From the NCBI GenBank assembly GCA_040830765.1, contig JBFOMH010000017.1, positions 224,001-288,000 of the forward strand: a stretch of DNA of 64,000 nt, in the 5' to 3' direction. This document shows positions 5,386 through 25,410 of this stretch, piece after piece. The notes under the pieces are model-generated. The model worked only from the letters and a program-made list of their open reading frames with translations. It was not told where the DNA came from and made no database searches. A program made the translations under genes and the position numbers. Every line of letters starts with the position of its first letter. Position 1 is the first letter of the stretch. The stretch comes from Puniceicoccaceae bacterium. Its GTDB lineage: Bacteria > Verrucomicrobiota > Verrucomicrobiia > Opitutales > Oceanipulchritudinaceae.

Positions 5386-8300
5386 CTAGAGTTCGGCATC
5401 TTCCACGCCGGCCGCATAGTCGAGGGCTGTTGAGAGGGGCAGGGTAGCCCCCTCCTGTACCTTGGCATTGAGGTCAACCCCTTGCAGCATTGCTCCGGCT
5501 TCATCGATTGCCTGGCCGACTCTTTTGGCGTCCGCTTCCGGCAGGGGAGCACCGATCGATTGCCGGATTGCCTTGGCAGCTCCAAAGAGGCGCAGGCTGC
5601 GGTCAGGTTTCTCCAGGTTAAGGGCGTTGAAAGCGAAGGTTTCAAGGATGAAGGCGAGGGAGCGCATATTGCCCAGTTCCCGTGCTACCCGCAGGCTTTC
5701 CAGCAGGTAGGCTTCACAAGCCGCTGCATCCTTTTGGTCGAGCGCTACTTCGGCGAGAGAGTTGTAGGTGTTGGCAATTTCCCCGCGGTCACCGACCTTC
5801 TGCAGGTATTCCATCGCTTTTTCGAGGTCCTTGCGGGCTCCGGCGAGGTCGCCGAGGTAGCGTTTGGCCATCCCGAGATTGTTGTAGGAGTTCCCGATGT
5901 AAAAGGGATCATTCAATTTCAGGCGGATGGCCAGGGCCTCTTCCTGGTAGTCCAATGCCTCGTCCAGCTTTCCCTGGAAGCGAAGGATAATGCCGGTATT
6001 GCTAAGGAGGCTGGTGACGTGTTTCTCCTGGCCCAGTTTGCGGCGGATTTCAATGCTTTGGGCATAGACTTCCCGGGCCTTGTCATACTGTCCGGTCTGT
6101 GCAGCGAGGGTGCCTTCACTGTGCAGGACGTCACCCATGCCTGATTCATCACCCAACGCGGTATAGGCTTCCCGGGCCTGCTCCAGCCATTTCCCTGCCT
6201 CCTCCATGGCACCGGTCTTGCGGTGAAGGTCCCCGATATCGAGGCGGCAATTGGCGATTTCCCCCTCCATTTGCAGGGATTCCGCCAGTTGCAGGGCATC
6301 CTCGTAGGTTTGCATGGACTCCTTCCAGTCGCCCGTTACTTCCAGAACCTTTCCGAGGTTGCTCAGGACAGGAACTTTATCCGGACCGTCAAGGAGTGGT
6401 AACAAGGACCTGTAATAACCAGCAGCGGTCCCAGCGGCATAGGCCTCGCGGGCGGCATCGCCCGCCAGGAGGAAATATTTCCGCTGCTTTTCCCGGTTCG
6501 GGCTGCGGCCGAAGTGGAAGGCCAGAAGATCGAGCATCTGGGTATTCTCCTCCCGGTAATGTTTCTCCAGAAAAAGGCCGATGGCTTCGTGCAGAATTGC
6601 CCGTAACTGTTTGGTCAGGCTTTCATAAGCGACCTCATGGATGACCACGTGCTTGAAGAGATAGGCCAGCTCAGCATCCTCTTCGTCGGGCGAGGTAAAG
6701 TCATTTTCGGTCAGGGCAGACAAGGCTTTCCGAACCTCCCGCTCGCCTCCCAAGTCGGGATAGACCCCCCAGACAACAGCGGCCCGGAAAATGCGCCCGA
6801 CCACACTGGCCACCTTCATGGTGATACGGGAATTCTCATTCAGCTGGTCCATCCGGCTGAGGACGAGTGCATACAAGCTGACCGGAAGATCGGCCTTCTC
6901 GAGGTCAGAGACAGAGGTCACTTCAATCTGCTCGTGATGCAGCCAGTTCATGACCTCATCGATGAAGAACGGATTGCCTCCGGTTTTCCGGGCAATGGTC
7001 TCAACAACTGCTTCCGGCACGTTCTGGTCGGCTCCAAATAGCTGGGCGAATTTCAGGCTGATTAACTCGGCTGCTTCCGCACTGTTGAATTCCGGTAATT
7101 CCAGGGAGACAACATAATCGAGACCGGACTCTGCCTCCGAAAAGAGTTCATTATCGTTATTGGGCCGGCGGGCGATGAGCAACATTACCGGCATCCGGGC
7201 GATGGCCTGGACGAGACTCCGAAATAATTCCCCGGAAACATCGTCAATCGCATGGGCATCCTCAAGGACGATAAGTATTGGATTGTCCTCGGAGGCATGG
7301 CGCAGGCACTCCACGAGCATACTCTCCAATGAAGCACGCCTTAGTTTCGCGTCGAAGGTCCGGGTCAATTCATTGTCAGCAATCTGAAGGTCCAAAACGG
7401 CACCAAGGAGGGGAAGGCGTGGCCCCAGGCGTTCATCAATTGTCTTCAGTTGGCGGCGCAGGGACGCTTCTGCTTCTTCCACGGGAATGGCCGGGTTAAG
7501 GCCAAAGAACTCGCGCCAGATTCGCCACCACGGGGCGTAGAGCGTGCTGTTGCCGAAGGTTTGGCACTCGCCGCTGTAAATCCGGAAGCCGGCAGACCGG
7601 GCCAATTTTGCCGTCTCCGCGACAAGGCGGCTCTTGCCCATTCCGGCATCGGCCTGCAGGGAAACCACCTGGCCAAACCCTTCCCGGGTCCGGTTCAGGC
7701 AATTTTCGATGGCCGCCAATTCCTCTTTTCGCCCGACCATGGGAAATGCCGAGCCTTCTCCTCCATCTGTTGCCAGGGAGCGCTCGGACTTGCCCTCCAG
7801 GCGAAAAACAGCCACTGGCTCGGACTTTCCCTTCACCCGGATATGGGGAAGGGTCTGCAGTTGAAAAGCCCGGCGTCCCTCCTTGTATGCCGGTTCGGAG
7901 ACGAGAATTTCCCCGGGGTCCGCCTTTCCCATCAAGCGGGCGGACAAGTTGACCTGGTCGCCAAGGACCCCATAGGTCCTTCTTGAAGGCCCGCCGTAGG
8001 CTCCGGTACGGGTGGAGCCCCGGCCAATGCCGATGCGGACAGCGGAGATGAAGTCCAGGTTTGCGGTCAGTTGTTGAATCTCCAGCGCGGCGGCCATGGT
8101 CCTCAATGTATCGTCCTCGTGGGAGATGGGGGCACCGAAGGCAGCATAAAGGAAGCTGCCTTTGTCACCAACCGTCAGCTGGTGGACAACCCCTTCGTAT
8201 TCATTGACGATCACCTGTACCCAGGAGAAAAAGGCATCCAGCTTTTTGTCTGCCTGCGAGTCCCCTTCAAAGTCGATGCCCTCGAACTTGACGAACATGG

Positions 8301-9078
8301 CCGTTGCCGGCCTCAGCTCGGTGAAGAATTCGCCCAATCCGGAGGAAATACGATTGCGGATGGCTGAAATAATCCACGGGTCAACCAGACCCGGCGGAAC
8401 TTCCAGAAAGCCGAGGTTTGGCCATGGCTCCTGCTCGACCGGGTTCACCAGCGAATGGATGACCCAGGCCAAAGTTTGGCCGGTGTCATCCTGCCGTTCT
8501 TCACCCAGCTCGGCATCACCGCCCAGGTTTTCGCGGGTTTCCGGGTCGATGAGCACTTCACCACGTTCTGCCAGTCCCTCGACTACGGCCACCCGGTAGA
8601 CCGGATCGCCGGCAAGGACATCGACCTTCTGGATGGATTCATCCCCAACCGCGAAGCGTTTAACCGTGCCGCTGGTCACCGCCGCCTTCAAACCAAGACC
8701 AATCGAACCGCCTCCAGGTGAGGGAATAGCCTGGAACGCTTCCATTCCTTTCTGCATCGCCAATGCGCATCCTACGGCCCGATGGCCGTCATCCTCCTCA
8801 AACCAGCAAGTAATGGCGTCTCCGGCGAATCCGATGACACTGCCCCGCACCCGGTCCACCTCCCCGATAAGCATGGCGTAAACCTCATTGAGGACCCGGG
8901 TAAGTTCCTCACCTCCCAAGCGCGAACCCAGATGAGCCTCAAAGGCCTCCGTCAAGGGGGTGAATCCCGAAATATCGGCAAACAATACCGTCCCTGCAGA
9001 CTGCTCCGGCAGGTCACCCGCCGAGGCCAAGGCCAACAGGCGGTCGCGGGGGACGTAAGCGTTGTAAGACTCCTTCAT
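5386..9078 (-). CDS. Soluble adenylyl cyclase-like protein: two class III cyclase domains + STAND/AAA ATPase + TPR repeats
   Basis: C1: LFADISGFT...FAGDA. C2: GDKG...SHEDD...YGVLGDQVNLSARLM...VKGK. Walker A ADAGMGKS, Walker B LIVLEDAH, GGNPFF, YLFKH, then many TPRs. No TM or signal peptide seen. Confidence 0.92.
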   Translation of the reverse strand: MKESYNAYVPRDRLLALASAGDLPEQSAGTVLFADISGFTPLTEAFEAHLGSRLGGEELTRVLNEVYAMLIGEVDRVRGSVIGFAGDAITCWFEEDDGHRAVGCALAMQKGMEAFQAIPSPGGGSIGLGLKAAVTSGTVKRFAVGDESIQKVDVLAGDPVYRVAVVEGLAERGEVLIDPETRENLGGDAELGEERQDDTGQTLAWVIHSLVNPVEQEPWPNLGFLEVPPGLVDPWIISAIRNRISSGLGEFFTELRPATAMFVKFEGIDFEGDSQADKKLDAFFSWVQVIVNEYEGVVHQLTVGDKGSFLYAAFGAPISHEDDTLRTMAAALEIQQLTANLDFISAVRIGIGRGSTRTGAYGGPSRRTYGVLGDQVNLSARLMGKADPGEILVSEPAYKEGRRAFQLQTLPHIRVKGKSEPVAVFRLEGKSERSLATDGGEGSAFPMVGRKEELAAIENCLNRTREGFGQVVSLQADAGMGKSRLVAETAKLARSAGFRIYSGECQTFGNSTLYAPWWRIWREFFGLNPAIPVEEAEASLRRQLKTIDERLGPRLPLLGAVLDLQIADNELTRTFDAKLRRASLESMLVECLRHASEDNPILIVLEDAHAIDDVSGELFRSLVQAIARMPVMLLIARRPNNDNELFSEAESGLDYVVSLELPEFNSAEAAELISLKFAQLFGADQNVPEAVVETIARKTGGNPFFIDEVMNWLHHEQIEVTSVSDLEKADLPVSLYALVLSRMDQLNENSRITMKVASVVGRIFRAAVVWGVYPDLGGEREVRKALSALTENDFTSPDEEDAELAYLFKHVVIHEVAYESLTKQLRAILHEAIGLFLEKHYREENTQMLDLLAFHFGRSPNREKQRKYFLLAGDAAREAYAAGTAAGYYRSLLPLLDGPDKVPVLSNLGKVLEVTGDWKESMQTYEDALQLAESLQMEGEIANCRLDIGDLHRKTGAMEEAGKWLEQAREAYTALGDESGMGDVLHSEGTLAAQTGQYDKAREVYAQSIEIRRKLGQEKHVTSLLSNTGIILRFQGKLDEALDYQEEALAIRLKLNDPFYIGNSYNNLGMAKRYLGDLAGARKDLEKAMEYLQKVGDRGEIANTYNSLAEVALDQKDAAACEAYLLESLRVARELGNMRSLAFILETFAFNALNLEKPDRSLRLFGAAKAIRQSIGAPLPEADAKRVGQAIDEAGAMLQGVDLNAKVQEGATLPLSTALDYAAGVEDAEL

Positions 9079-9258: not shown

Positions 9259-12200
9259 ATGCGCTCACGTCATGTTCTTTTCTGCTGCCTGAATTTCTTT
9301 TTTGGCATTATCGTTACACCGCTGCAAGCAGCTGAAATAAAAGTTGATTCCACCGCCGATCCAGGTCCCCTGCGGGACGCCATCATCGGCGCCGCGCCAG
9401 GCGACGTGGTGCTCCTGCGGGCTGAAGGAGAAGTCCTTCTCACATCCCCGTTGCCCGTTCGCCGCGGTATTCGAATTGAAGGACAAAGCGGTCCGTTGGC
9501 CCACACGCTCAAGGTGAGTGGAGATTTCCGACATTTCGATGTCAGCGGCCTTCCCGTTGACGAGACGGCGACCATTGCCCGGCTGACCCTTGAGGGAAAT
9601 CTGCCCGAAGATGCCGGGGGCGGTATCAGCAGCCGTTCCAATCTTCTTCTCGAAAGTGTCCAGGTGGTGGACAGCAGCGCAGAGCATGGCGGGGCGATTG
9701 CCCAAACGGGAGCATCCCTTGGTATTGATTTGTCCTATTTCGCCCGCAATGAATCTGAACTGGCTGGTGGATTGGAAGGCTCCGGGGGAGCTGTTTACGC
9801 TAGTGGAGCGGAGTTGACCGTTACCTCGACAGGATTTGTCAGCAACGTGGCCGGCAGTGGGGGGGCAATTGCCTTTGCGGGACCAGACTCCAGCCTTATT
9901 GTCCGCAGCAGCACATTTTCTGGAAATAGGGCTGTTATCTCAGGGGGTGCGGTATCGCTGGCCAGTGGAGATGGCCGATTCATCAACCTGACACTGGTCG
10001 ACAACAATAGTGGAGCAGATACGCTTTCCCACATAAATGCGGGTACCAATGCAATCACTGTGGGAAACTCACTGGTGGTTGGTGAGGGTGATGGGTTGCC
10101 TGGAATCCTCGGTGATCTGCAAGCAGAAGGAACGGGAACCAACCGTTCAGGCACAGACCTGTCCTTGGGTCTGGGAATGCCTGCCGGAGCCTATGGCGGT
10201 CTCCGTCCGACCTATCTCCTTCATCCTGGCAGGACGGCCCTCCCTGACGGGAGTAATTTGCTGCTTCCCGAAACCGACCGTGACCAACGCGGATTGGCCC
10301 GCTTTTCCGACGGTGATGGCGAAGGCGGGGACATTGTCGATCAGGGAGCATTTGAGGTGCAGCACTACAAGGTATCCGCCTTGCAGATCCGCGGTTCGGC
10401 CACGGGTGGCAAGGACGACGGCGGTTACGGAAATCCCTTTGATCCAAGTGATGATGCGGATTCCATCGCCTCGGCGGATGTCTTTGTCCAACTGACAAAC
10501 ACCAACAAAGCTGACATCGGGGATGCGGTGGGAGCCAATAATGCCGCTGGCGGTGGATCGGTTTCGTTTGATGAAAGAACCTGGGGAGGGCGTGTTGTTC
10601 TCAAGGGCCGGGAGCTGGAGGTTCGCCGGGATATTGCGATTTATGGACCCGGGGCGACCCGGATGTTTATTGACGGAAGTGCCAGTTCACCGGTCTTCCG
10701 GATTGGTGAAGCAGGCCAGGACGTCCTTGCCTACATGGAGGGCATCTCCATCGAGAACGGGCTCGCAGAGACCGGAGCCGGAATTGTTGTTCAGGATGGA
10801 GGGCGCGTTTCACTCAAGGAAGTACAATTAAAAGGTAATTCCGCCAGTCTGGCCGGCGGGGGGATTGCCGTCCTTTCCGGTGCGACGGATCTTTATCGGA
10901 GTTCCCTCATCGATAACCAGGCAGGTGACCAGGGTGGGGGCATCTTCGGTTCGATAGATTCCGTTATCGTCATTGATACGAGCACCCTTTCTGGAAATTC
11001 AGCAGGTTCCATGGGTGGAGCCGTGGCAAGCTCGGGTGACCTGACCATCGACTCCTCGACCATCGTGGCAAACGGAGCGAACTCCAATACCGGTCTCCTG
11101 GTTGAAGGGGCCACTGGCATTATCCAGAATACAATCCTCTCCCTCGGTACGGCCGATACCATCGATGCCGGCTCTGGGACATCGGTGAACTCAGGTGGAT
11201 ACAACCTTTCCGAGGCCAGCGAGGGCGGCTTCCTCCTTAATGCCACTGATTTGAGCGGTACTGATCCGGAATTAAACGTTCGCTCATTGAATGATGGTGA
11301 AACGCTTTCCCATGCCCCCAAGGGCACCAGTCCGGCCATTGATGCCGGGAGCAGCTATTTTCCGCTTGTCGATGGCCAGCTGGACCAGCCGGGTAATGAC
11401 CGGGTCAAGGGGGCCGCTATCGATATTGGTTCTGTTGAGCTGCAGAACGATTCTCCAACTATCGAATGTATCAGCGAACCGGATACAGAGTGTGTTTCCT
11501 CCTCCGGTGCGCTGGTTGCTGTTGACGTGCTTGTCGATGACGTCGACAAGGATGACCTGACTGTGACCTGGAGTGCGGCGGGTGTTTCTGAGACGCAGAA
11601 TGTTGCTGGGGCAGAGTTGCCGCTAGCCAGTCCATTGTCACAGGACTTGCTCCTGCCAATCGGTACGACAACTGTCACCATCACGGTTTCGGATGGATTT
11701 ACCTCAGCCAGTTGTGCGGTCATGGTCAAGGTGGCAGACACCACCGCCCCGACTGTAACCCTTTCCGGCCCAACCTCCATCAATCTGGAGTGCGGTATCG
11801 ATGCGTATGTTGAATATGGAGCGACGGCTTCCGATATCTGTGATCCGGGCCCCACTGTAGTCATTTCACCGATACTGGACAGTTACCCGGAAACCGGTAC
11901 CTATACGGTTACCTACACTGCAGCCGATGCGGCGGGCAACTCCAGCTCCGCAACCCGGACGGTCAACGTCGTGGACACGACGGATCCTGTCGTTACCCTC
12001 AACGGGAGCGCTCTCGTCACATTGCAGTGTGGGGTTGATACATTTTCGGATCCGGGTGCAACGGCCCTGGATGACTGTGAGGGAGCGTTGGACGTCGGCC
12101 TCCCGGTCCGGACGGACTTGGAGCTACTGACCGAGAACTCCGTCGAGACTTACCGGTTAACCTACAGTGTCACGGATTCCTCCGGGAACACCGGCAGTGC

Positions 12201-15200
12201 AAGCCGGGTTGTGGATGTCATCGACACTGTTGCCCCGTCCATATCCCTCAACCAGCCGGATTATGGAACGATTGTCTGTGGTGTGGACAGCTATGTGGAA
12301 TACGGTGCCAGTGCCACGGATAATTGCCAGACCTCCATTTCAGTGGGTGCCCCGATCCGGACGGACCTGCCATTGGCGAGTGTAGATTCCTTTGAAACCT
12401 ACTTGCTGACATACACGGCCACTGATGCCACCGGAAACGCTGCCTCGGTTTCCCGCACAGTTGACATCATCGACAACAGCGCCCCAACGTTTACTTCCGT
12501 TCCTGCAGACTCACAGCCCCTCACGGATGCGGGGTACTGCTTTGCCACGGTGGAGTTCGAAGCCGTTGCTACGGATACCTGTGATACCGATCTGACCATT
12601 ACCTACGACATCCTTCCCAACGAAGCTTATCCTGACGGCCTGAATGGGATCCAGTCTGGTCACCGCTTCCCGCCACTTCCCGATGGTCAGGGTGGGTGGT
12701 TGCCTCATGTTGTCCGCGTTACCGCCACCGATGATACCGGGAAATCCGTTTCCGACACCTTCGACGTGACGGTCGAAGACAAGTATAACAACTGCGCCTT
12801 CAATGTGGCCTGGCCCGCTTCCCTCGACCTGAGTTTCGAACAAAGGGATGGATTTGTTGAAGCAACCCAGCAGCAGTTGCTGGGGCTGACCGACCAGTCC
12901 CGCTGGTACAAGTTTTCGGTGACGCCAGGCAGCCGGGTGACGATTATCCTTTCCAGCCTCCCGGCCAATTATGACATCGTCGTTTACCGTGATATACGGG
13001 AAGAATTCGAACGTATCCTCGATCTTTTCCTCAATGGCACATCCGAGGAACAGGAGCTTTCCCTTCTCGGTGCGGAATTCGCCCCGGAAAGCTTCACTCC
13101 GGAAAGTTTCCTCCCCGAAAGCTTCCTCCCGGAAAGTTTCCTTCCGGAAAGCTTCCTCCCGGAGAGCTTCCTGCCTGAGAGTTTTCTCCCGGAAAGTTTT
13201 ATTGCCGAAGCCTTCTCCCCGGAAAGTTTTCTCCCGGAAAGCTTCATCCCGGAGAGCTTCCTCGTGGACAGTTATTCACCGGAAAGCTTCCTTCCGGAAA
13301 GTTTCCTTCCCGAGAGCTTCCTGCCTGAGAGTTTTCTCCCCGAAAGTTTTCTTCCAGAGAGTTTTATAGGAGAAGAGAATTTTACCCCCGAGTCGTTTAT
13401 CGCCGCCCAGCTGTCGAGCATGATTGCCTATTCCGCATTTCCGGGCGTGGCCAGTGAAGGAGTAACCATCAATACCTACACCACAAGCGGGGATTTCTAT
13501 GTTCGCGTGCGCGGAGCCAATGGTGTCTTTGACGGTATTAATCCGTTCACCTTGTCGGTCTTCATTGAGGAAGAAGTCTGTGGTGATCCCGATGGGGAAG
13601 GACCCTTGACGGGAGTCCAGGGTCCGGAGTCCTTTGCCGGAGCAGTTCCCCAGGGACTAGCTGGCGACTTCCAGACTCTCATCCTCTGGGATTCCTCCCG
13701 CACAGCTGGAAGCGATACCGACATCGCAACACTCGGCTCCATGTTGGAGACCTTCAAGCAGCGCACCGAGGTCAATGGTGAAATCATCGACCTGGCCCTT
13801 CAGGATCGCGTCGTGGAGGCAAATATCCAGGCGGATGCCTACCCAACCTGCCCATACGCCAAGAATCTCGTCGCTGAGGAAATAAAGGCTGTCATCGATG
13901 CCTGGAGGGATTCCACCACGGTCGACGGGGTTTCCTCCCTGAAGTACATCATGCTACTGGGTAATGATGATGTCATTCCGTTCTTCCGGACAACCGATCA
14001 GGCTTTCCTGGCCAACGAATCCAATTACGTCCCACCGGTGCGGGATAACAACCATTCCCAGTCCAGCTTGCGCTACGGGCAAATCCTGACCCAGGATCCT
14101 TATGGAGCAGATTGCGTGGTCAACCTTTCGACCGGTCCCTATCCCTACGGGGGACTTGCTGTGGGCCGTCTTGTGGAATCCGCTGCCGACATGATTGGCC
14201 AATTGGAAAACTACAACGCCTTGAGCGGTGGCCTGCTTCCCGTTCCGGATACCGCACTGGTTACCGGGTATGACTTCCTTGATGACCTTGCCGGTGCAGT
14301 CGAATTCGAATTGGAAGCAGCCCTTGGGAGCCAGATCGATACCTTGGTCGATGCCTCGACAACAGCCCCGGCCGATGGCTGGACAGCGACTGAGCTGGCG
14401 GACATTTTCCTCGGCTCCCATCATGACATCGTATTCCTTGCCGGTCACTTCAGCACCGGTAGCGCCCTGGCAGCCGACTACGAGACCCGTCTGACGGCAG
14501 CCCAGGTCAGGGAATCTGGTGCCGACTTGCTAAACACTTTAATCTTCAGCATCGGCTGTCACTCCGGTTACAACACCGTGGACAGCCATGCCATCAACGG
14601 GATTACCAAGCAGCCGGACTGGGCCCAGGCCTTTGCCCAGATGGGGGCCACCCTGATTGCCGGTACCGGCTACCAGTACGGTGATACCGAGTTTGTTGAG
14701 TACAGTGAACGCCTCTATCTGGAGATGGTGCGTCAGCTTCGGACCGGACCCGGCGCGGTGTCGGTTGGGGAAGCATTGGTCAATGCCAAGAAGAAGTACC
14801 TTGCCGAAACCGAATTGATGCGGGGGATTCATGAAAAATCCCTCCTGCAGGCGACGCTCTTCGGGTTCCCGATGCTGAAAATGAATGTGCCCGGTGACCG
14901 CATTACTTCTCCGTCAGGAAGTTCGGTGGTCCCTGCATCCCTTCCTGTGGTAGGCAGCAATCCAGGTCAATACCTCGGGCTTTCAGCTCATGACCTGAAC
15001 CTCGATTACAGCAGTCTGCCCCTTGTCGAGCCCAACACCTTGACCGTCTTTGATCCGGGAGCTGATCCTGGCGACAAGTCGGATGACACTGAATACACCT
15101 TGAAGTGGTATGAGGGTGGGAACGGCATTGTCAGTAATCCGATCGAGCCGGTGCGTCCATTGGACAGTTATTTCGTTTCAGTCCCCGGCAATCTGCTCCG

Positions 15201-17421
15201 CGGTGTCGGATTCCGGGGCGGTGATTATATCGATGAAAGCAATTTCCTCACTCTCACGGGTGCCCCGACTACGGAAATCCGCGGGGTCTTTGGTGAGTTC
15301 ATAACGGAAGTCTTCTATCCCGTGCAGCCATACAGCACCAACTATTTCGGCGCTATCTGTGGCGCTAACGAGGGCGAGCGGCTCAATGTCTACCGTACCC
15401 AGTACTACAACCCGGATGATGGAATCGAGGGCGGTACGCTGCGGAAGTACAGCAGCATGAACTTCCGTTTGTACTACAACAACAACCGGGAAACGTACTA
15501 CAATGCCAATGGGGATGCCATCATCCCGGCCTTGACGGCTCCACCCTCCATTTCCCGGGTTCTCTCATCAACTGATGGGTCATCGGTCGATTTCGATATC
15601 ACGGTGCTCGCTTCCCCGGCAGTCGGTGTCCAGGAAGTCTGGATTACCTACACCGGCATACCCGGCTCAGCCCTCCATGGCTCATGGCAATCCTTCGACC
15701 TGGGGCAAGGCGCTCTTCCGGACACAATGGTCTGGTCGGGGAACCTGCCTTTGCCCGAAGGCGTTCATCCCGACGAGGTCCGTTTCATGGTTCAGGCGGC
15801 ATCCGGCATAGGCCTGGTATCCCTGAAGAGCAACTTCGGCCAGTATTATCAGGTCGGTGTCGATGAACTGGCCGCGCGAATGACATCGGAGATTTCCATA
15901 ACGGAAGTTTTGCCCGCAGCGGCCGACTATGGCTACGGTGAGACCTTGACCGTCAAAGCCCTCCTGAAGGGTTACAGCGAGTCGAGCCAATCCTTTGAAG
16001 CCCTTGCCGGCAAGCGGGTGGGGATCCGGGTCGGTGCCTCGCGGGTTTCCGGGACGACCGGGGCGGACGGTATTGTCACCCTTGACCTTCCCCTTCAGGT
16101 GCGCCCTGCCACCGAGTTGCTGCAGGCCTATTTTACCGGGGACCTGCTCTTCAGCCCAAGCGCGGTTGATCAACCTATCACTATCACAAAGCAGGACACG
16201 GTTCTTGCTTTCGATGAAGGCATTCCGGTTCCACCCAATGAGATCTTCGGATCGGATGTGGTGGTTAGCCTGCGCGATGCCATTGGTACGCCCTTGAAGG
16301 AACGGACGGTCTTCTTCCTCGTCGATTACGGCTCCTTCCAGATTGGCAACTCTGTCATCACGGACATCGCCGGGCGGGCTGATTTGAGCGAAATCTTCCT
16401 GCCCTCTGGAAGTGCTACCATTACGGCCTACTTCAATGGCACTATTCCCTTGCCGGACGCCGATCCGGTGACGATTACCGATTTGCTCTACAAAGCCGCA
16501 ACCCCGGTCAGTATCGACGTTCTCCTGGATCAGCCGATCAGGGAGGATAGCCTGGGCTTCGATCCGCAACAGGTGGATATCTATTACAAGTCCAGTGGCA
16601 ACGGGAGAAACGCCATTCCTCTCTATGAGAACGCTTCCATAGCCGGTGACGTGGCTTTTAATGTACCGCTTCAGCCTGATGACTTGACAGCAGATCTTGA
16701 GAATCCGGATTACATCTCCGGCTATGTTTTTGCCACCCTGGCGGGTGAAGTTATCGTCGATGAACCGGTTACCCTGGACACGCGCGGCGACAACGGCAAT
16801 CACTGGACGACGACCAGTCAGCCCGGACAGGCAGCTGCCTACGTTGGCATTCACTGGTCGGATGCACCTCGCTTCGACAGTGCCCTGTCCGAGAGTCCAG
16901 GCCCCAGGATTTCCACTGTTTTCATCGGTAACAACTTCACTGAGTTCCGGTACGTCCCTCTACCGGGTACTGGCAGCTATACCACGACATTCCCCAATGG
17001 TGGACCAACGATCGTGGTCAAGCGGGGAGTTGTCGATCCTGAGGCCAGCGGTCTGGCGGAAGGAGAGTACGGTCTTGATGAGGGTGGTCTGGTCTTCACT
17101 GTCAAATTTGGACTGGAACCGGGAATGAGCTTCCTCACACGGGACAGTTCGAACAACAATCCGTTCCCGGATATCGAAGTGGAGGTGATTCCTGAGATTA
17201 ACTATCTCACCGAAGGCGGGCGCATGATCATCCGGCTTCAGGCGGTTCCCGGCATGCCGGAATTTCCGCCGGCATCGAATGCGGAACCCAACCTTTTCGA
17301 GTGTCGGTTTATCCTCGGGCCCGATGATGGTGTCCAGGTCCGCTCCATCGCACGGATTGGAGAAGGTCTTTACGCAATTCCCTGGACCAGTGAAGATCCC
17401 GGGCACAAACAATACCGGTGA
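9259..17421 (+). CDS. Giant secreted multidomain protein: beta-helix/choice-of-anchor-Q x2, DUF5011/HYR Ig repeats, split PPC-like domain with pentapeptide array, C25 (gingipain)-like peptidase domain, Ig-like tail
   Basis: 2720-aa ORF with GAGG RBS and signal peptide (LQA|AE). GGAI/GGGI beta-helix repeats end in DQRG..R...D.GAFE and DQPG..R....IDIGSVE. Repeats of DTT.P..TL.G..ECG.D...GATA.D.C follow. C25-like motifs IMLLGNDDVIPF, AVGRL, FLAGH, SIGCHSG and LFGFP. Confidence 0.85.
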   Translation: MRSRHVLFCCLNFFFGIIVTPLQAAEIKVDSTADPGPLRDAIIGAAPGDVVLLRAEGEVLLTSPLPVRRGIRIEGQSGPLAHTLKVSGDFRHFDVSGLPVDETATIARLTLEGNLPEDAGGGISSRSNLLLESVQVVDSSAEHGGAIAQTGASLGIDLSYFARNESELAGGLEGSGGAVYASGAELTVTSTGFVSNVAGSGGAIAFAGPDSSLIVRSSTFSGNRAVISGGAVSLASGDGRFINLTLVDNNSGADTLSHINAGTNAITVGNSLVVGEGDGLPGILGDLQAEGTGTNRSGTDLSLGLGMPAGAYGGLRPTYLLHPGRTALPDGSNLLLPETDRDQRGLARFSDGDGEGGDIVDQGAFEVQHYKVSALQIRGSATGGKDDGGYGNPFDPSDDADSIASADVFVQLTNTNKADIGDAVGANNAAGGGSVSFDERTWGGRVVLKGRELEVRRDIAIYGPGATRMFIDGSASSPVFRIGEAGQDVLAYMEGISIENGLAETGAGIVVQDGGRVSLKEVQLKGNSASLAGGGIAVLSGATDLYRSSLIDNQAGDQGGGIFGSIDSVIVIDTSTLSGNSAGSMGGAVASSGDLTIDSSTIVANGANSNTGLLVEGATGIIQNTILSLGTADTIDAGSGTSVNSGGYNLSEASEGGFLLNATDLSGTDPELNVRSLNDGETLSHAPKGTSPAIDAGSSYFPLVDGQLDQPGNDRVKGAAIDIGSVELQNDSPTIECISEPDTECVSSSGALVAVDVLVDDVDKDDLTVTWSAAGVSETQNVAGAELPLASPLSQDLLLPIGTTTVTITVSDGFTSASCAVMVKVADTTAPTVTLSGPTSINLECGIDAYVEYGATASDICDPGPTVVISPILDSYPETGTYTVTYTAADAAGNSSSATRTVNVVDTTDPVVTLNGSALVTLQCGVDTFSDPGATALDDCEGALDVGLPVRTDLELLTENSVETYRLTYSVTDSSGNTGSASRVVDVIDTVAPSISLNQPDYGTIVCGVDSYVEYGASATDNCQTSISVGAPIRTDLPLASVDSFETYLLTYTATDATGNAASVSRTVDIIDNSAPTFTSVPADSQPLTDAGYCFATVEFEAVATDTCDTDLTITYDILPNEAYPDGLNGIQSGHRFPPLPDGQGGWLPHVVRVTATDDTGKSVSDTFDVTVEDKYNNCAFNVAWPASLDLSFEQRDGFVEATQQQLLGLTDQSRWYKFSVTPGSRVTIILSSLPANYDIVVYRDIREEFERILDLFLNGTSEEQELSLLGAEFAPESFTPESFLPESFLPESFLPESFLPESFLPESFLPESFIAEAFSPESFLPESFIPESFLVDSYSPESFLPESFLPESFLPESFLPESFLPESFIGEENFTPESFIAAQLSSMIAYSAFPGVASEGVTINTYTTSGDFYVRVRGANGVFDGINPFTLSVFIEEEVCGDPDGEGPLTGVQGPESFAGAVPQGLAGDFQTLILWDSSRTAGSDTDIATLGSMLETFKQRTEVNGEIIDLALQDRVVEANIQADAYPTCPYAKNLVAEEIKAVIDAWRDSTTVDGVSSLKYIMLLGNDDVIPFFRTTDQAFLANESNYVPPVRDNNHSQSSLRYGQILTQDPYGADCVVNLSTGPYPYGGLAVGRLVESAADMIGQLENYNALSGGLLPVPDTALVTGYDFLDDLAGAVEFELEAALGSQIDTLVDASTTAPADGWTATELADIFLGSHHDIVFLAGHFSTGSALAADYETRLTAAQVRESGADLLNTLIFSIGCHSGYNTVDSHAINGITKQPDWAQAFAQMGATLIAGTGYQYGDTEFVEYSERLYLEMVRQLRTGPGAVSVGEALVNAKKKYLAETELMRGIHEKSLLQATLFGFPMLKMNVPGDRITSPSGSSVVPASLPVVGSNPGQYLGLSAHDLNLDYSSLPLVEPNTLTVFDPGADPGDKSDDTEYTLKWYEGGNGIVSNPIEPVRPLDSYFVSVPGNLLRGVGFRGGDYIDESNFLTLTGAPTTEIRGVFGEFITEVFYPVQPYSTNYFGAICGANEGERLNVYRTQYYNPDDGIEGGTLRKYSSMNFRLYYNNNRETYYNANGDAIIPALTAPPSISRVLSSTDGSSVDFDITVLASPAVGVQEVWITYTGIPGSALHGSWQSFDLGQGALPDTMVWSGNLPLPEGVHPDEVRFMVQAASGIGLVSLKSNFGQYYQVGVDELAARMTSEISITEVLPAAADYGYGETLTVKALLKGYSESSQSFEALAGKRVGIRVGASRVSGTTGADGIVTLDLPLQVRPATELLQAYFTGDLLFSPSAVDQPITITKQDTVLAFDEGIPVPPNEIFGSDVVVSLRDAIGTPLKERTVFFLVDYGSFQIGNSVITDIAGRADLSEIFLPSGSATITAYFNGTIPLPDADPVTITDLLYKAATPVSIDVLLDQPIREDSLGFDPQQVDIYYKSSGNGRNAIPLYENASIAGDVAFNVPLQPDDLTADLENPDYISGYVFATLAGEVIVDEPVTLDTRGDNGNHWTTTSQPGQAAAYVGIHWSDAPRFDSALSESPGPRISTVFIGNNFTEFRYVPLPGTGSYTTTFPNGGPTIVVKRGVVDPEASGLAEGEYGLDEGGLVFTVKFGLEPGMSFLTRDSSNNNPFPDIEVEVIPEINYLTEGGRMIIRLQAVPGMPEFPPASNAEPNLFECRFILGPDDGVQVRSIARIGEGLYAIPWTSEDPGHKQYR
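13081..13398 (+). repeat. Coding tandem repeat, 15-bp unit, (x-P-E-S-F)n
   Basis: 19 in-register 15-bp units at 13081-13365: 17 xPESF plus IAEAF and LVDSY. Then IGEENF and one more TPESF. Synonymous codon variation between units. Confidence 0.97.
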
Positions 17422-18409: not shown

Positions 18410-20242
18410 ATGAGCCTTTTTACCTCCTCTCTCAACAGTATCCGGCACCTCATTGAGGAAATCCACGAGAACCACCGGCATCTCTACGAAGGTGAGATCG
18501 CGGATTACATCCCGGAACTGACTCGGGCCAACCCGGACTGGTTCGGGATCGCCATCACGACCGTTGACGGTCGGCAGTACCTCGTTGGTGACACGGCCAT
18601 CGAGTTTACTATCCAGTCCGTTTCCAAGCCCTTTATTTATGGTCTGGCACTGGATGCCATCGGGCCTGAGGCGGTTCGGCACAAGATAGATGTCGAGCCG
18701 TCGGGTGAGGCCTTCAATTCGATCAGCCTGAAGCCGACAACGGGTCAGCCGATGAATCCGATGATCAATGCCGGGGCCATTGCGGCAACGGGCATGATCC
18801 CGGCAAGCTCGGCCGAGGAGCGGTTTGCCTTTATCCTGCAAAAATTCAGCGACCTGGCCGGATGCCAACTGACCCTCGATGACTCCGTCTACCGCTCGGA
18901 AAGCGAAACAGGATTCCGCAACCGGGCCATTGGCAACCTGATGCGCAACTTTGATATCCTCGAGGGAGAGGTCGATCCCATCCTTGAGGCTTACTTCATG
19001 CAGTGTGCCATCCTTGTCGATAGCAAGTCATTGTCTGTTATGGGAGCAACCCTTGCCAATGGGGGAGTGAATCCTCTCACCGGCGAACGGGTCCTGAGCC
19101 GGGCCTCTGTGGAGAAGGTAATCAGTGTCATGAGTACCTGTGGCATGTACGACTATTCTGGCAACTGGGCCTTTGAGGTCGGGATTCCGGCCAAAAGTGG
19201 CGTGGGTGGCGGCATCATCGGGGTACTGCCGGGACAGCTCAGTGTGGCGGTCTTCTCGCCCTTGCTGGACCCGAATTTCAACAGTGTCCGGGGTATCGCC
19301 ACTTTTCGGGACTTGTCACAGAGCTTTGGACTCCACTTGTTCAACCGGCCCTCATTGACCGACTATGTCATTCGTCGCTCTTACACTTTGGCGGAATTCC
19401 AATCGAGCCACTTCCGGCCCAAGGAGGCGCATGATATCCTCCAGAGAGAGGGAGAACGGGTACGCATTTTCGAACTGCAGGGTGATCTCTATTTCGGTGC
19501 CCTGGAAAGGCTTATCCATGCATACCTGCAGAACTTCGACAATATGGAGCGGGCGGTTATCGACCTGACCCGGATTGGGAGTATTGATGAAGCAACGCGG
19601 GAAATCGTCTTCCGTTTTGCCAGGCAGGGATTTGAGAAGGGGAAGCGTATCGTCCTCGTCGATCCGGGCGGGATTTTCACAGAAGAGGAACGACGCAGCC
19701 TGGTCCCGATGGCCTTTGTTTACAATGATTGCGACGAGGCCCTTGAGGATGCCGAAGAAAACCTTCTCGCCCAATTTGGGGCCCGTACGGAGGCCACCCT
19801 GGCCGTTCCATTCGAGGCCATGGACCTTCTCCAGGATATGGAGACGGCAGCCCTGGATGAGCTCATGGCATTATGCGAACGCCGTTCCATTTCAGCGGGT
19901 TCAACGATTATCAAGCAAGGCACTCCTCCCTTGGAGATGTACTTCCTTTCGAAAGGCACGGTTGGCGTGCTCCTGCCACGGGAGAATGGTAAAGACTTCC
20001 GTCAGGTCTCCAGTTTTACCCCGGGCATGAGTTTTGGTGAACTGGGATTCCTGCAGGGCCAAATCCGGACCGCAGATGTGAAAGCGATCACGGACGTCGA
20101 GCTCTATGCATTGGACCAAAAGGCTATCGGGGCATTCCGGAAGTCACATCCGGAAGGTTACCAAACGATTCTCCACAACGCCTTGCTTTCCATGTCCGAC
20201 CGCCTGCTGCGTGCGAACAGGGAAGTGGCGGCATTGAAATAA
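18410..20242 (+). CDS. glsA: Glutaminase A fused to STAS and cNMP-binding domains
   Basis: ADYIPEL, FTIQSVSKPF (SxxK), EPSGEAFN, NPMINAGAI, CGMYDYSG and PAKSGVGGG. STAS domain LQGDLYFG...IDLTRI. C-terminal FGELGFL...RTADV. Confidence 0.93.
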   Translation: MSLFTSSLNSIRHLIEEIHENHRHLYEGEIADYIPELTRANPDWFGIAITTVDGRQYLVGDTAIEFTIQSVSKPFIYGLALDAIGPEAVRHKIDVEPSGEAFNSISLKPTTGQPMNPMINAGAIAATGMIPASSAEERFAFILQKFSDLAGCQLTLDDSVYRSESETGFRNRAIGNLMRNFDILEGEVDPILEAYFMQCAILVDSKSLSVMGATLANGGVNPLTGERVLSRASVEKVISVMSTCGMYDYSGNWAFEVGIPAKSGVGGGIIGVLPGQLSVAVFSPLLDPNFNSVRGIATFRDLSQSFGLHLFNRPSLTDYVIRRSYTLAEFQSSHFRPKEAHDILQREGERVRIFELQGDLYFGALERLIHAYLQNFDNMERAVIDLTRIGSIDEATREIVFRFARQGFEKGKRIVLVDPGGIFTEEERRSLVPMAFVYNDCDEALEDAEENLLAQFGARTEATLAVPFEAMDLLQDMETAALDELMALCERRSISAGSTIIKQGTPPLEMYFLSKGTVGVLLPRENGKDFRQVSSFTPGMSFGELGFLQGQIRTADVKAITDVELYALDQKAIGAFRKSHPEGYQTILHNALLSMSDRLLRANREVAALK

Positions 20243-22687: not shown

Positions 22688-23428
22688 TTAAATCTTGTTG
22701 ATCATGTTGGCGAGGTAGGCAGCTCCGAAGCCGTTGTCGATATTGACCACACTTAGCCCGGAAGCGCAGGAGGTAAGCATTCCCAGCAAGGCCGCTACTC
22801 CGCCAAAACTGGCCCCGTAACCGACACTGGTTGGAACGGCAATGACCGGAACGCTGACAAGGCCACCAACAACGCTGGGCAGAGCCCCTTCCATACCGGC
22901 CACCGCGATAACCACCTTGGCCTTGCGCAATGTCTCAAGGTCGGCAACCAACCGGTGCAACCCGGCAACCCCGGCATCATAGATGGTGTTGACCGTGTTG
23001 CCGTAAAACTCGGCGGTTATGCGAGCTTCCTCTGCCACTGGCAGGTCGGAAGTACCAGCACAGACTATGCTGATGAAGGATTCTGTTCCCGTTGTGGGGG
23101 AATTTTTAAGGACCACCGTCCGGGCGGTTTCTGAATGCTCCGCCTTGGGAAAAGTCGCTGTTAAGACTTCCGCTTTCTCCGGAGCCACGCGTGTGATGAG
23201 AACATCCTGGTCCCTTTGCAGGAGGCTGTTGGTGATATCGACCAGTTGTTGGGGTGTCTTGCCCTCGCCAAAAATGACTTCGGCAGCCCCGTTCCGTTCG
23301 AGTCGATCGTGATCCACCCGCGAGTGGCCAATGTCTTCATAGAGGCTGGAGCGCAGCTTTTCGACAGCGGCATCCACTTCCATCTGGCCGCTTTCCACGG
23401 CCTCAAGTATTTTTCTAAGATGCGACAT
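22688..23428 (-). CDS. larB: Nickel-pincer cofactor biosynthesis carboxylase/hydrolase
   Basis: DHDR..R.G..EVIFGEGKT, CAGTSDLPVAEEA, AGMEGALPSVVGGL, PTSVGYG and CASGLSVVNIDNGFGAA. Confidence 0.95.
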   Translation of the reverse strand: MSHLRKILEAVESGQMEVDAAVEKLRSSLYEDIGHSRVDHDRLERNGAAEVIFGEGKTPQQLVDITNSLLQRDQDVLITRVAPEKAEVLTATFPKAEHSETARTVVLKNSPTTGTESFISIVCAGTSDLPVAEEARITAEFYGNTVNTIYDAGVAGLHRLVADLETLRKAKVVIAVAGMEGALPSVVGGLVSVPVIAVPTSVGYGASFGGVAALLGMLTSCASGLSVVNIDNGFGAAYLANMINKI

Positions 23429-23429
23429 G

Positions 23430-24587
23430 CTAATCCTTCAATTTTTCTTCAACTTCCCTGAGTGAAAGGTTGTTTTCCCGGGCAATGCGACTGAGGTCAT
23501 CAAACTCCACTTTCGAGCGGATAAGCCTACCATCCAGGAATGCGGACTTTACCCGGACCTTGCCGAGTGGGGTTTCTTTTTCCGAGATCTCCCGGTCCAG
23601 GATGGTCCGGTTCCATGAACGCCAGCGCACCCCGAGGGTCGTGCTGTGTTCCAGCAGAATCGTCGTGATGCTTTCCCGATCACCTGGCTGTATCAGGATC
23701 GACAATACACAACCCATGCGGCCTTTCTTGAAGGTGGCTGGTGTTTGCCAGACGTCGAGGGCTCCGGCTTTCAATAATTCCTCAACCAGGAAGGCGACAT
23801 GTTCCGGGGACATGTCATCGAGATTGGTGGCCAGTTCGATAACCTCACCCGAAGGGGCTGTTGCCTCGCTCGTTTCCTCGATCAGGGAGACATAGACGAC
23901 ATTGGCCGCCGCAGGATCGTCCCGCTGGCCGATACCGATGCCCGTGGCGAGTGTTTTCCCAGTAATGGCCTCGCCGAAATGGCACTCTTTTCCCACAAGG
24001 AGGGCGGCACCCGTCGGGGTGGTGGCTTCACCGGAGGTACCGCCGAACGAGACCGGAAGATCTTTCACCAGCTTGGCTGTTGCCGGGGCGGGTACAGGCA
24101 TGCGGCCATGGGCACACTGGACGGTTCCACTACCCAGCTCCACGGTGGAGGCGGCAACCCGGTCAATCCCCAAAAGTTTCCAGCAGATGGCGGCGCCCGT
24201 TATATCGATGATGGAATCGATGGCTCCGACCTCATGGAAATGGATGGCTTCGGGTGGCTTGCCATGAACGGCACCTTCCGCTTCCGCCAATGCCCGGAAG
24301 ACCGCAATCGCATCCCGTTGCACATCCGAATCAAGCGCCGAGTTCTCAATGATATCCTTGATATCAGCAAACGTGCGGTGGTGATGGGAGTCCTCGTGCG
24401 TGACATCACAGCGCGTCCCGGCGATTCCCTTCCGCTTGTCCTTTTCAAACCGCAGGGACCATCCCTCAAGATGGAGCTTTTGTAATTCCTCAACAATGGC
24501 ATCCGGCTCAACACCAAGGTCGACCATGGCTCCAAGGTTCATGTCTCCGCAGAGGCCGGCTGGACAGTTGTAGAATAAGGTCTTCAT
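23430..24587 (-). CDS. larC: Nickel insertase (LarC1+LarC2 in a single frame)
   Basis: GLCGDMNLGA, His patch HEDSHHHR, HFHEVGAIDSIIDI, AHGRMPVPAPAT, TPTGAA, TNLDD, KKGR and TTLGVR. Confidence 0.95.
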   Translation of the reverse strand: MKTLFYNCPAGLCGDMNLGAMVDLGVEPDAIVEELQKLHLEGWSLRFEKDKRKGIAGTRCDVTHEDSHHHRTFADIKDIIENSALDSDVQRDAIAVFRALAEAEGAVHGKPPEAIHFHEVGAIDSIIDITGAAICWKLLGIDRVAASTVELGSGTVQCAHGRMPVPAPATAKLVKDLPVSFGGTSGEATTPTGAALLVGKECHFGEAITGKTLATGIGIGQRDDPAAANVVYVSLIEETSEATAPSGEVIELATNLDDMSPEHVAFLVEELLKAGALDVWQTPATFKKGRMGCVLSILIQPGDRESITTILLEHSTTLGVRWRSWNRTILDREISEKETPLGKVRVKSAFLDGRLIRSKVEFDDLSRIARENNLSLREVEEKLKD

Positions 24588-25304
24588 TTAAAATCCAAGA
24601 TGAATAGCGGTTCCACACAGTAGAATGATGAGGCCGGCCATGACATGGCCATAACGGCTGAAGCGCCGGAAAGGAATCCATTCCATGCCGCGTTGCATGA
24701 GATAGACCACACCCATCATGGTGCCGATAGTCGATGCGGCAAACAGGAGGGTCGTCATCCCCGCCAACCACCAGTCGTGTTGCACAGCCGGGAAGAAGAG
24801 GATGGGAATAAATGCCTCACAGGGGCCGAAAATGAAAATGACGAACAGGCTCCATGCGGTGACGGTGTGACGTTGATTGGCTAAATGGGGATGAGCGTGT
24901 TCTCCCTTGTGGGTATGCGGATGGCGGTGGATGGTTCCGTCTGCATGGACATGGGTGTGGCTGTGCTCCTTCTTGCGCCCCAGTCCCTTGATGGCCCAGG
25001 CCAGGTATATTGCTCCCATGCCAGTCAGTAACCAGGCAGCGATGGTTCCCCGCGCGGATTCAATCCACTCCAGGCTTCCAAGACTCCAGCCCGCGAGGAC
25101 ACCGATGGCTCCGAGCGCAATCGAACCAAGGACGTGACCAAGGCCGCAAATACCCGTCAGGAGCAGGGTTTTCCGGGCGGACCATTTTCGGGCTTTGGCC
25201 AGGGCGACAAAGGGCAGGTAATGGTCCGGTCCCAGCAAGGTGTGTGTCACACCGACGACCATGGCCGTCAAGAGGAGAGCGCCTGAACTGGAATCAATGA
25301 GCAT
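24588..25304 (-). CDS. His-rich nickel transporter-like membrane protein (UreH/NicO/DsbD_2-like)
   Basis: About 6 TM segments. HTLLGPDH, GHVLGS, His loop HSHTHVHADGTIHRHPHTHKGEHAHPH and GPCE. Directly abuts larC. Confidence 0.8.
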   Translation of the reverse strand: MLIDSSSGALLLTAMVVGVTHTLLGPDHYLPFVALAKARKWSARKTLLLTGICGLGHVLGSIALGAIGVLAGWSLGSLEWIESARGTIAAWLLTGMGAIYLAWAIKGLGRKKEHSHTHVHADGTIHRHPHTHKGEHAHPHLANQRHTVTAWSLFVIFIFGPCEAFIPILFFPAVQHDWWLAGMTTLLFAASTIGTMMGVVYLMQRGMEWIPFRRFSRYGHVMAGLIILLCGTAIHLGF

Positions 25305-25410
25305 ACCGCTAGAACGCTAACTGCAGTCGGCCGCTTCGCAAATCAAATTCCCATTTCCCATTGTCCAGCTTCATTTGACAAGCTGCAGCATCGTGGCATC
25401 ATGGTTATTC

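Follow-up and report, generated by a model that had tools for sequence, protein, structure and literature searches.

The 64,000-nt stretch analyzed here (the window; positions 224,001 to 288,000 of contig JBFOMH010000017.1 in the Puniceicoccaceae bacterium assembly GCA_040830765.1) carries an open reading frame (ORF) at 9259..17421 on the + strand that encodes a giant secreted multidomain protein of 2720 amino acids. Within this protein lies an array of pentapeptide units (13066..13365, +), set into a PPC-like beta-sandwich domain and followed by a C25-like peptidase domain of the gingipain type, clan CD (residues 1467-1915; 13657..15003, +). In relatives of this module, the third position of the array unit co-varies with one residue of the peptidase-like domain, Arg1744 in the window protein (14488..14490, +), as revealed by the comparison of alignment columns with dominant units.

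The array comprises 20 consecutive in-register units when LGAEF, IAEAF and LVDSY are counted, with the unit order LGAEF, APESF, TPESF, LPESF x6, IAEAF, SPESF, LPESF, IPESF, LVDSY, SPESF, LPESF x6. The sequence-only reading of this DNA had placed 18 PESF copies on a strict five-residue period. All 18 are present; 17 share one strict register, starting at residues 1276-1311 (8 copies), 1321-1331 (3) and 1341-1366 (6), and the 18th, at residue 1377, lies one residue out of step, since IGEENF, which precedes it, is six residues long. IGEENF and TPESF form the out-of-register end of the array (13366..13398, +); relatives have IGENF or IGQDF in place of IGEENF. An isolated 19th PESF (residues 1456-1459; 13624..13635, +) is located in the linker between the PPC-like and C25-like domains and could be a maturation site or a leftover unit, ESF-containing linkers being restricted to the window's close clade (P0001, P0002 and P0005).

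The codons of the array vary synonymously, as had been noted from the sequence; the counts are CCG 11, CCC 3, CCT 2 and CCA 1 for proline, GAA 12 and GAG 6 for glutamate, AGT 10 and AGC 8 for serine, and TTC 12 and TTT 6 for phenylalanine. The DNA is different in 11 of the 12 LPESF units, and divergence among units falls mostly at third codon positions. Serine at unit position 4 is always AGY and leucine always CTN, while AGY accounts for 38% of serines in the rest of the gene; units with the same peptide have a mean DNA identity of 0.80, compared with 0.72 expected from a free codon draw. The units thus have a common origin, though an old one. Tandem Repeats Finder reported periods of 15, 30 and 45 with 70-73% matches. 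The 29-nt block that recurs exactly 150 bp apart (13162-13190 and 13312-13340) is real; the ten-unit duplication proposed from it is not supported: when codons were permuted between synonymous sites, 81 of 1000 arrays contained an exact repeat of 29 nt or more, and self-identity is 0.785 at shift 150 against 0.80 at shift 195.

Contigs of a second, independent study span 13063-13429 with zero differences, which shows that the array did not arise in assembly; the best DNA match to the array region may be the source sample itself and so is not independent. In the Protein Atlas, the top neighbour score for the array did not exceed 0.83, and the array profile had DotG/IcmE repeats as its sole match among solved structures, at E 0.74. 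Two further ORFs run across the array in other frames, one of 132 amino acids (12971-13369, +) and one of 87 amino acids (12984-13247, -), encoding for example KLSGR repeats; these are by-products of the repeat, not genes.

To characterize the flanks, residues 1200-1445 were modelled with AlphaFold2 from 41 aligned sequences. Both flanks form one eight-strand sandwich with a predicted local distance difference test (pLDDT) score of 80-92. The N-terminal half provides strands 1-4 (residues 1201-1244; 12859..12990, +; model positions 2-7, 15-22, 27-33 and 39-45; pLDDT 83-92), from which two helices (residues 1246-1273; 12994..13077, +; model positions 47-60 and 63-74) lead into the array, whose entry motif L-x-A-E-F is conserved across the family. 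A return helix (residues 1377-1387; 13387..13419, +; model positions 178-188) leads back to the C-terminal half with strands 5-8 (residues 1388-1437; 13420..13569, +; model positions 189-193, 201-206, 212-220 and 231-238; pLDDT 81-91). The array and its helical base, about 145 residues together, are thus inserted between strands 4 and 5. Over the array itself (residues 1277-1375) pLDDT is 31-38 and no secondary structure is predicted.

Structural comparison with VIA-align, using the array-trimmed model, placed the C-terminal domain of Tk-SP first (Z 12.7, rmsd, the root-mean-square deviation, 1.9 over 94 residues), followed by the collagen-binding domains of ColH (10.8) and ColG (10.6), the PPC domain of Bacillus anthracis collagenase (5sv5, 10.3) and KP-43 (10.2). 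The superpositions cover 90-95 residues at an rmsd of 1.9-2.4 and draw on both halves of the model (residues 1..239), so that by this measure the split domain has the beta-jelly-roll fold of PPC domains. Foldseek alone returned no match to the model at E<=0.001. The Pfam PPC family (PF04151) aligned to the window protein over profile positions 1-32 of 70 with 18.4 bits, below its cut-off of 25.9, and an Ig-like domain was the sole match of the A1 profile among solved structures. The sequence-only proposal that the array separates two halves of one PPC-like domain is supported by the single modelled sandwich and by Z scores of up to 12.7.

The domain downstream of the sandwich shares 32% identity (BLASTP, E 2e-44) with the PF01364-matched stretch of a relative, P0326. 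The window protein itself was not matched by PF01364 in a Pfam scan; relatives above the cut-off of this family include P0202 (42.3 bits) and P0160 (29.6 bits) among 24 scanned, as well as P0326 (51.1 bits) and P0359 (38.1 bits). In a PDB profile search with the domain, gingipain R ranked first, at E 0.67; P0202 gave no match when compared with solved structures. The Protein Atlas neighbours of the window's domain are C25 clusters. In a hidden Markov model alignment of 247 relatives, the putative catalytic His1730 (14446..14448, +) is His in 246, and the putative catalytic Cys1767 (14557..14559, +) and the adjoining His1768 are invariant in all 247. The two catalytic residues close the motifs ..IVFLAGH.. 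and ..LIFSIGCH.., His and Cys each ending a hydrophobic strand as in C25 peptidases (the second motif continuing into His1768). By these residues, the domain appears to be a catalytically intact cysteine peptidase domain, and the earlier placement of the array just before a protease-like domain is borne out by the relatives that pass PF01364 and by the invariant His/Cys pair. Two further invariant cysteines, Cys1441 (13579..13581, +; A1 column C252) and Cys1531 (13849..13851, +; A1 column C342; Cys in 247 of 247), may possibly form a disulfide.

Relatives of the module are numerous. A word-indexed search with residues 1190-1950 returned 848 proteins at E<=0.001, and every one of the 120 listed has a period-5 array. 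When 1.84 billion cluster representatives were searched exhaustively with HMMER, 3356 clusters scored at E<=0.001, 992 of them at E<=1e-30. Among the 247 relatives first collected, 242 have a period-5 array at the same site, in answer to the question of the sequence-only reading whether homologues carry arrays there; the array is therefore not specific to the window gene. The refuting condition named in that reading, that homologues have no repeat at this place, does not hold. Of the five exceptions, two bear degenerate arrays and three are fragments starting just past the array. In species-representative genomes, relatives are encoded by at least 568 loci, distributed over six or more phyla, mostly Chloroflexota and also Verrucomicrobiota, Actinomycetota, Pseudomonadota, Myxococcota and an Acidobacteriota-labelled bin. 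A sample of 200 other genomes from the window's phylum yielded no copy of the giant gene at E<=1e-20. In a quick FastTree phylogeny built from the C25-like domain, the window forms a group with two Opitutales/Puniceicoccaceae sequences (support 100), and this group is nested in a mainly Chloroflexota set, apart from other Verrucomicrobiota. The tree suggests old transfers between phyla, an inference limited by genome bins and paralogues.

Length and unit statistics were taken from 234 proteins with both flanks anchored. The insert between the flank anchors has a median length of 101 amino acids (interquartile range, IQR, 100-107; 5th-95th percentile 76-118; extremes 40-337). Of the 234, 105 have an in-register span of exactly 20 units, the mode, and 194 fall within 17-22 units; the unit counts have no peaks at 16 or 24. 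The family array motif is [S/A/L]-P-[D/E/S]-x-[F/Y/W], with the unit consensus S (73%), P (90%), D 48, E 20, S 17 or A 9%, A (60%), and F 86, Y 13 or W 1%; in all, there are 71 distinct dominant units. In a set of 59 arrays with exactly 20 units, systematic deviation is limited to the first two (L-x-A-E-F and A-P-x-x-F) and the interior is uniform, which led us to discard the idea of special internal units. Basic residues are nearly absent: Lys and Arg together account for 40 of the 22,157 residues in the arrays, and 214 of the 234 arrays lack them altogether. The arrays have a median net charge of -18.

Several metagenome contigs and proteins in the databases begin directly past the array (L027, L035, L042, L048, L049 and L060; P0242, P0243 and P0245). 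Short-read assemblies evidently often break inside the array, and the very short and very long database arrays (7 to 66 units) may partly be assembly effects. The protein P0017 (residues about 190-520) has about 66 SPDAF units with periodic SEDEA interruptions, and it also matches the NCBIfam model 'pentapeptide MXKDX repeat protein' with 99.7 bits.

Beyond this main clade, the same site accommodates other repeats. A distant paralogue in one Chloroflexota genome (L088:2381-6547, E 2e-84) has the same layout of PPC, loop and C25, with an array of 11 GQLSNI hexapeptides. This unit fits the pattern [LIV]-G-x-x-[STAV]-x of left-handed beta-helix hexapeptide repeats; the Pfam Hexapep model did not match the distant hexapeptide arrays at E<=0.01. 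At its N-terminus, this paralogue carries PD40-type beta-propeller repeats. Its relatives (153 matches) have various repeats in the same loop, among them GLMGNI, GGQLSAI x6, a 12-residue unit x5, PFQRS x16, AYRNG x8, PFEST/PFEDT x5 and SPVPN x5, together with semi-repetitive or plain inserts. Arrays free of aromatic residues occur at this site as LSPDE x15, LPSGS x23 and GQLSNI x11. Because distant branches carry other repeats in the loop, aromatic periodicity and proline are not essential family-wide. In branches with other repeats, the sequence past the catalytic His differs as well. More distant C25 proteins (P0330) have an intact, Pfam-recognized PPC domain (43.3 bits) and CARDB without an insert, and the loop insert is for this reason derived; either it turned repetitive more than once or it diversified. 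The form with 20 x [S]P[D/E/S]x[F] is the mark of the large main clade.

Within each array the peptide is conserved far beyond the DNA. Units were compared by residue and third-position differences, the Nei-Gojobori ratio of non-synonymous to synonymous proportions (pN/pS) being confounded by the six-fold serine codons. Across 72 loci, the median difference between interior units of the same array is 6.9% of residues (IQR 0-11.7%), while third positions of codons for the same residue differ at a median of 50% (IQR 43-56%); recent homogenization of the DNA was found in only one of these loci. When the array was compared with the 82%-identical orthologue L005 over 115 aligned codons, 52 were unchanged, 45 synonymous and 18 non-synonymous, similar to the folded flanks (32/23/10 and 26/21/7) and the C25-like domain (220/174/76). 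A two-unit indel separates the two arrays. The placement of odd units is common to close relatives, which argues for a stable array rather than a contingency repeat. Positions that are free to vary between proteins are thus kept uniform inside each array despite drifted synonymous sites, and purifying selection acts on every unit. The contention of the sequence-only reading that selection on the peptide, rather than recent slippage, maintains the repeat is confirmed by the residue and third-position differences and by the codon split against L005.

To identify residues associated with the unit type, each protein's dominant unit was compared with every aligned column of the conserved module. 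Column 1744 was the top mutual-information partner of unit position 3 among 1072 columns (1.09 of 2.18 bits, z 4.9), and no comparable partner column was found for the other unit positions. Arg1744 closes an otherwise invariant motif, A-A-D-[Y/F]-x-T-R, 14 residues past the catalytic His. In the first 234 proteins, Arg is found at this column with 104 of 108 D-type arrays, 48 of 49 E-type, none of 44 S-type and 5 of 16 A-type arrays, and Ser or Thr stands there in 35 of the 44 S-type proteins. Pooling of 286 proteins gave 130 of 134 (D), 50 of 52 (E), 0 of 59 (S) and 6 of 20 (A). The rule holds in 69 genome loci (Arg with D 25/25, E 15/15, S 0/18) and in 46 later proteins obtained with a different query (D 26/26, E 2/2, S 0/11). 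Among outlying members, LSPDE/A arrays occur with Arg, and LPSGS, LPASY, LPSGY, SPSQW, SPSVW and APSTF arrays without it.

Shared ancestry was addressed with phylogenetically independent pairs, drawn from quick FastTree trees. The first set yielded 15 pairs, of which 10 changed in the same direction, none in the opposite direction and 5 not at all (p 0.002). Pooled data gave 18 pairs (13 same, 2 opposite, 3 unchanged; p 0.007), S versus D/E alone 11 pairs (9/1/1; p 0.02), and the well-supported branches of the pooled set 9 pairs (median p 0.016, range 0.004-0.18). The switch at position 3 and 1744 recurs on independent branches, and all units of an array switch together. The net charge of the C25-like domain is alike in proteins with acidic and neutral arrays (-22.6 and -21.3), so that the link between unit and 1744 is a specific one and does not reflect overall charge. 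The second-highest mutual information belonged to column 1457, which lies within the isolated PESF; this was put down to shared ancestry, the linker motif being confined to the window's clade. At column 1700 (P0001 numbering), Arg is found with 76 of 108 D-type, 9 of 49 E-type and 4 of 44 S-type arrays, and at column 1934 (same numbering) an acidic residue is commoner when the array is not acidic. These two columns may be second-site associations with position 3; they are weaker and lie in variable regions.

We hypothesize that the adjoining C25-like peptidase recognizes the array as a flexible, tethered loop with many substrate-like copies; to this reading we assign a probability of about 45%, somewhat short of even odds. 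Each identical unit could occupy a binding site on the adjoining peptidase domain, and the loop would act as a built-in bait or pro-segment. Occupation of the enzyme by the loop might keep it latent or let the loop compete with outside substrates; alternatively, the enzyme might cut the loop in cis, leading to maturation. Units would make physical contact with the peptidase, and cleavage or inhibition might follow. Such a loop would account for the strict association with an intact peptidase, for selection on each unit, and for uniformity within arrays alongside diversity between lineages. It would likewise account for the joint switch of unit and enzyme, for the lack of predicted structure, and for the different repeats found where the enzymes differ. 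The whole array switches with the enzyme, which fits interchangeable ligand copies better than one static contact. Of the functions suggested by the sequence-only reading, the protease bait has gained the most support, through the co-variation of position 3 with 1744, the solenoid or self-assembly motif was disfavoured by the AlphaFold2 model, and the release of identical peptides is an improbable but possible third.

Several observations weigh against the bait or pro-segment. The well-supported branches of the first set gave 5 pairs and a p value of about 0.125, which is not significant; column 1744 was found by scanning many columns, and in about 7,800 column-by-property tests on the 15 pairs it was one of the two best. 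Ala at position 3 often goes with a retained Arg1744 (6 of 20), and the position of 1744 differs from the S1 residues named for RgpB. A tethered ligand by itself leaves the fixed count of 20 unexplained, and stacking in a solenoid would also be compatible with uniform units and a narrow range of lengths. Variants of the type SGAAF/W come near the canonical consensus of pentapeptide repeats, and a distant array scores above the cut-off of a Pfam pentapeptide model. Low AlphaFold2 confidence is no proof of disorder.

Some of these points favour an ordered repeat, namely a pentapeptide-repeat-like four-sided beta-helix of five turns, or another solenoid, which would serve as a rigid arm or docking surface and on which AlphaFold2 would have failed. 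We consider this unlikely, if still a serious candidate. A mode at 20 units together with uniformity inside arrays is what stacking would demand. The canonical consensus A(D/N)LXX has a central Leu or Phe with a small residue two positions before. The SGAAF/W minority of relatives fits this motif, and the proline-free variants (SGAAF/W, SGQAF) can be read as A-A-F-S-G, near the canonical A(D/N)LSG; in the window, L-P-E-S-F could conceivably place Leu and Ser inside such a helix. Sub-threshold Pentapeptide_4 matches were obtained in P0130, P0151, P0194 and P0214 and in 2 of 14 arrays, and the PFQRS array of P0374 passes Pentapeptide_3 with 30.3 bits against a cut-off of 27. Against stacking, the residue two before Phe is D in 48%, E in 20%, S in 17% and A in 9% of units and Glu in the window, which sets the window array apart from A(D/N)LXX; a Phe-centred register would therefore turn D or E inward in 68% of units. 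No Pfam pentapeptide model matched the window array at E<=10, the 15 matches of a six-frame genome search with PF00805 all fell on two other contigs, away from the array, and hhalign against a true pentapeptide-repeat protein of the same genome returned a probability of 0.03. By sequence, then, the array lies outside the A(D/N)Lxx family, as had been stated at first sight. The missing peaks at 16 or 24 units also speak against a solenoid, and a static helix would contact 1744 by one or two units, leaving the switch of the whole array unexplained. Finally, AlphaFold2 gave low scores and no strands here despite over-predicting solenoids for perfect repeats; in the portion of PMC11795689 that treats such sequences, it built confident beta-solenoids for 32 of 78 random perfect repeats.

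A passive flexible element is rather improbable. The loop might then be an entropic spring, a hidden length that lets the PPC halves part under load and re-close, or a steric brush. Its predicted lack of structure suits this role, as does the clamping of both array ends on one small domain between N-terminal adhesin-like and C-terminal parts. Proline at position 2 followed by D, S or G suits serial beta-turns, comparable with elastin VPGVG and flagelliform silk GPGGX. The scarcity of Lys and Arg would also be in keeping, and distant branches differ in unit length and composition as if bulk properties suffice. A spacer, however, needs no letter-perfect units, and here the units are near-identical with about half of their synonymous sites changed; positions with 71 dominant-unit variants between proteins barely vary inside one array. 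The co-variation with 1744 would be left unexplained, given the similar net charge of the C25-like domain in both array classes.

It is improbable to a slightly greater degree that the C25-like domain acts on one after another of 20 tethered copies of the motif it recognizes, whether in sortase-like ligation of the adhesin part to the envelope or in the release or cyclization of lineage-specific pentapeptides. If the sortase-like variant were true, anchor-less giant proteins would gain an in-cis sorting signal of adjustable stalk length. If an enzyme-plus-cassette reading were true, the unit sequence would report enzyme-variant specificity across roughly a thousand protein clusters.

More doubtful still is an array made to be consumed, either as a precursor from which about 20 pentapeptides are released and possibly cyclized, or as a donor in which a unit serves as a PorU-like acyl donor linking the N-terminal part to a cell-surface amine. 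This would explain unit uniformity, lineage diversity and the co-variation of enzyme and unit, and a C-terminal anchor signal is absent from 246 of the 247 relatives; the C25-family protein PG0026/PorU is proposed as a transpeptidase in the relevant part of PMC4560394. Twenty pentapeptides per protein of 1,500-3,000 residues would be a very poor yield, however, there is no obvious reason to hold a product array at 20 copies, and no modifying or export genes were seen beside the giant gene when its neighbourhood was inspected. Consumption overlaps with the bait or pro-segment and differs from it only in the purpose of cutting. A multivalent strip of periodic aromatics for binding a polysaccharide or hydrophobic surface, or for cell-cell cohesion, is very improbable: position 5 is always aromatic in the main clade (F 86%, Y 13%, W 1%) and the protein is secreted with adhesin-type domains, but wider-family arrays lack aromatics at the same site, the link to 1744 would go unexplained, and family scans of the window protein and the arrays matched no carbohydrate-binding family.

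Returning to the recognized-loop reading, the nearest known systems include gingipain zymogens. According to the passages of PMC4357240 concerned, the RgpB zymogen is kept latent by its N-terminal prodomain, in which an inhibitory loop puts a substrate-like Arg into the S1 pocket. As in the window protein, gingipain zymogens have a beta-sandwich-type domain with a long projecting loop directly N-terminal to the C25-type domain, and a conserved catalytic His/Cys pair. In contrast to them, the window's loop presents about 20 identical units in place of one inhibitory residue, its carrier is a PPC-type jelly roll, with Propeptide_C25 (PF08126) not among the window's Pfam matches, and the module lies mid-protein in a giant chain. 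Specificity for Arg or Lys is unlikely for an array nearly free of basic residues. In part of PMC3482391, internal caspase-like domains of large surface proteins are proposed as autoprocessing peptidases.

Other known systems also come close. The window array shares with pentapeptide repeat proteins (PF00805, PF13599, PF13576) its tandem five-residue units with a fixed Phe, and about 20 units would equal five turns. It differs in matching none of their models, in having Pro in every unit and no helix in AlphaFold2, in having D/E where the canonical motif has a small inward residue, and in being a fixed-length loop insert rather than a free-standing domain. Both flanks superpose on PPC and collagen-binding jelly rolls (PF04151; ColG/ColH, Tk-SP, KP-43); unlike these, the window's domain is split by an insert of about 145 residues, scores below the Pfam cut-off, and lies before the peptidase domain rather than after it. 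The period of five, with Pro at position 2 and a turn-favouring residue next, is shared with the elastin and silk repeats mentioned above, and a flexible exposed stretch within reach of a protease resembles the alpha-2-macroglobulin bait region. The window array differs from elastomeric arrays and bait regions in being acidic and aromatic, in its fixed copy number, in having both ends in one domain, and in sharing its chain with the protease.

On the favoured reading, the element belongs with the pro- or inhibitory segments that clan CD peptidases carry in the same chain, here realized as a tandem array. Pfam and NCBIfam have no model of the array or the module, and in the literature searched we found no description of such arrays or of the module. 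New in this analysis are the split-domain fold, the array's predicted lack of structure, the co-variation with the enzyme, and the series from intact PPC to other repeats. If the units are recognized by the adjoining peptidase, this would be a natural example of an enzyme to which some twenty copies of the motif it recognizes are tethered. Since motif and enzyme residue have changed together many times, they would then provide a ready-made specificity map of unit sequence against enzyme variant, covering a clan CD peptidase branch that is uncharacterized and occurs in Chloroflexota, Verrucomicrobiota, Actinomycetota and other phyla, and a new way to control or mature giant secreted proteins. 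Whatever the mechanism, this tandem repeat is not hypervariable, with copies near 20 and a near-identical peptide at about 50% third-position drift, which bears on how annotators and assemblers should treat such repeats.

The array-bearing gene is single-copy in the source genome and also in 4 of 5 other genomes checked. Its product begins with a probable signal peptide (residues 1-24; 9259..9330, +), judged by the hydrophobic N-terminus, with the cleavage site inferred; a signal-like N-terminus is found in 187 of the 247 relatives. Upstream of the module, the protein has a Choice-of-anchor Q domain (residues 669-729; 11263..11445, +; NCBIfam NF041518, 60.7 bits) and HYR and bacterial surface Ig-like domains (residues 837-987; 11767..12219, +; Pfam PF16403 with 100 bits, PF02494 and PF23237). 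These N-terminal parts differ among relatives and include beta-helix, HYR, Ig-like, cadherin-like and choice-of-anchor Q domains. Base composition gave no sign of horizontal transfer, the GC content of the giant gene being that of its surroundings. Contigs from RNA libraries cover only parts of the window.

The neighbours of the giant gene are unrelated to it and comprise peroxidase, acetyltransferase, cyclase/ATPase, glutaminase and Lar genes. Divergent to and upstream of the giant gene, a 1230-residue protein (5386-9078, -) combines an adenylate/guanylate cyclase domain with an AAA_16 ATPase and many TPR repeats. Downstream, a glutaminase is fused with a cyclic-nucleotide-binding domain (18410-20242, +). 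Further along, adjacent genes matching an AIR carboxylase (LarB-like), a nickel insertion protein (LarC, PF01969) and an NAD-synthase/PP-loop protein (LarE-like) occupy 22688-26235, a group that looks like a nickel-pincer cofactor synthesis cluster.

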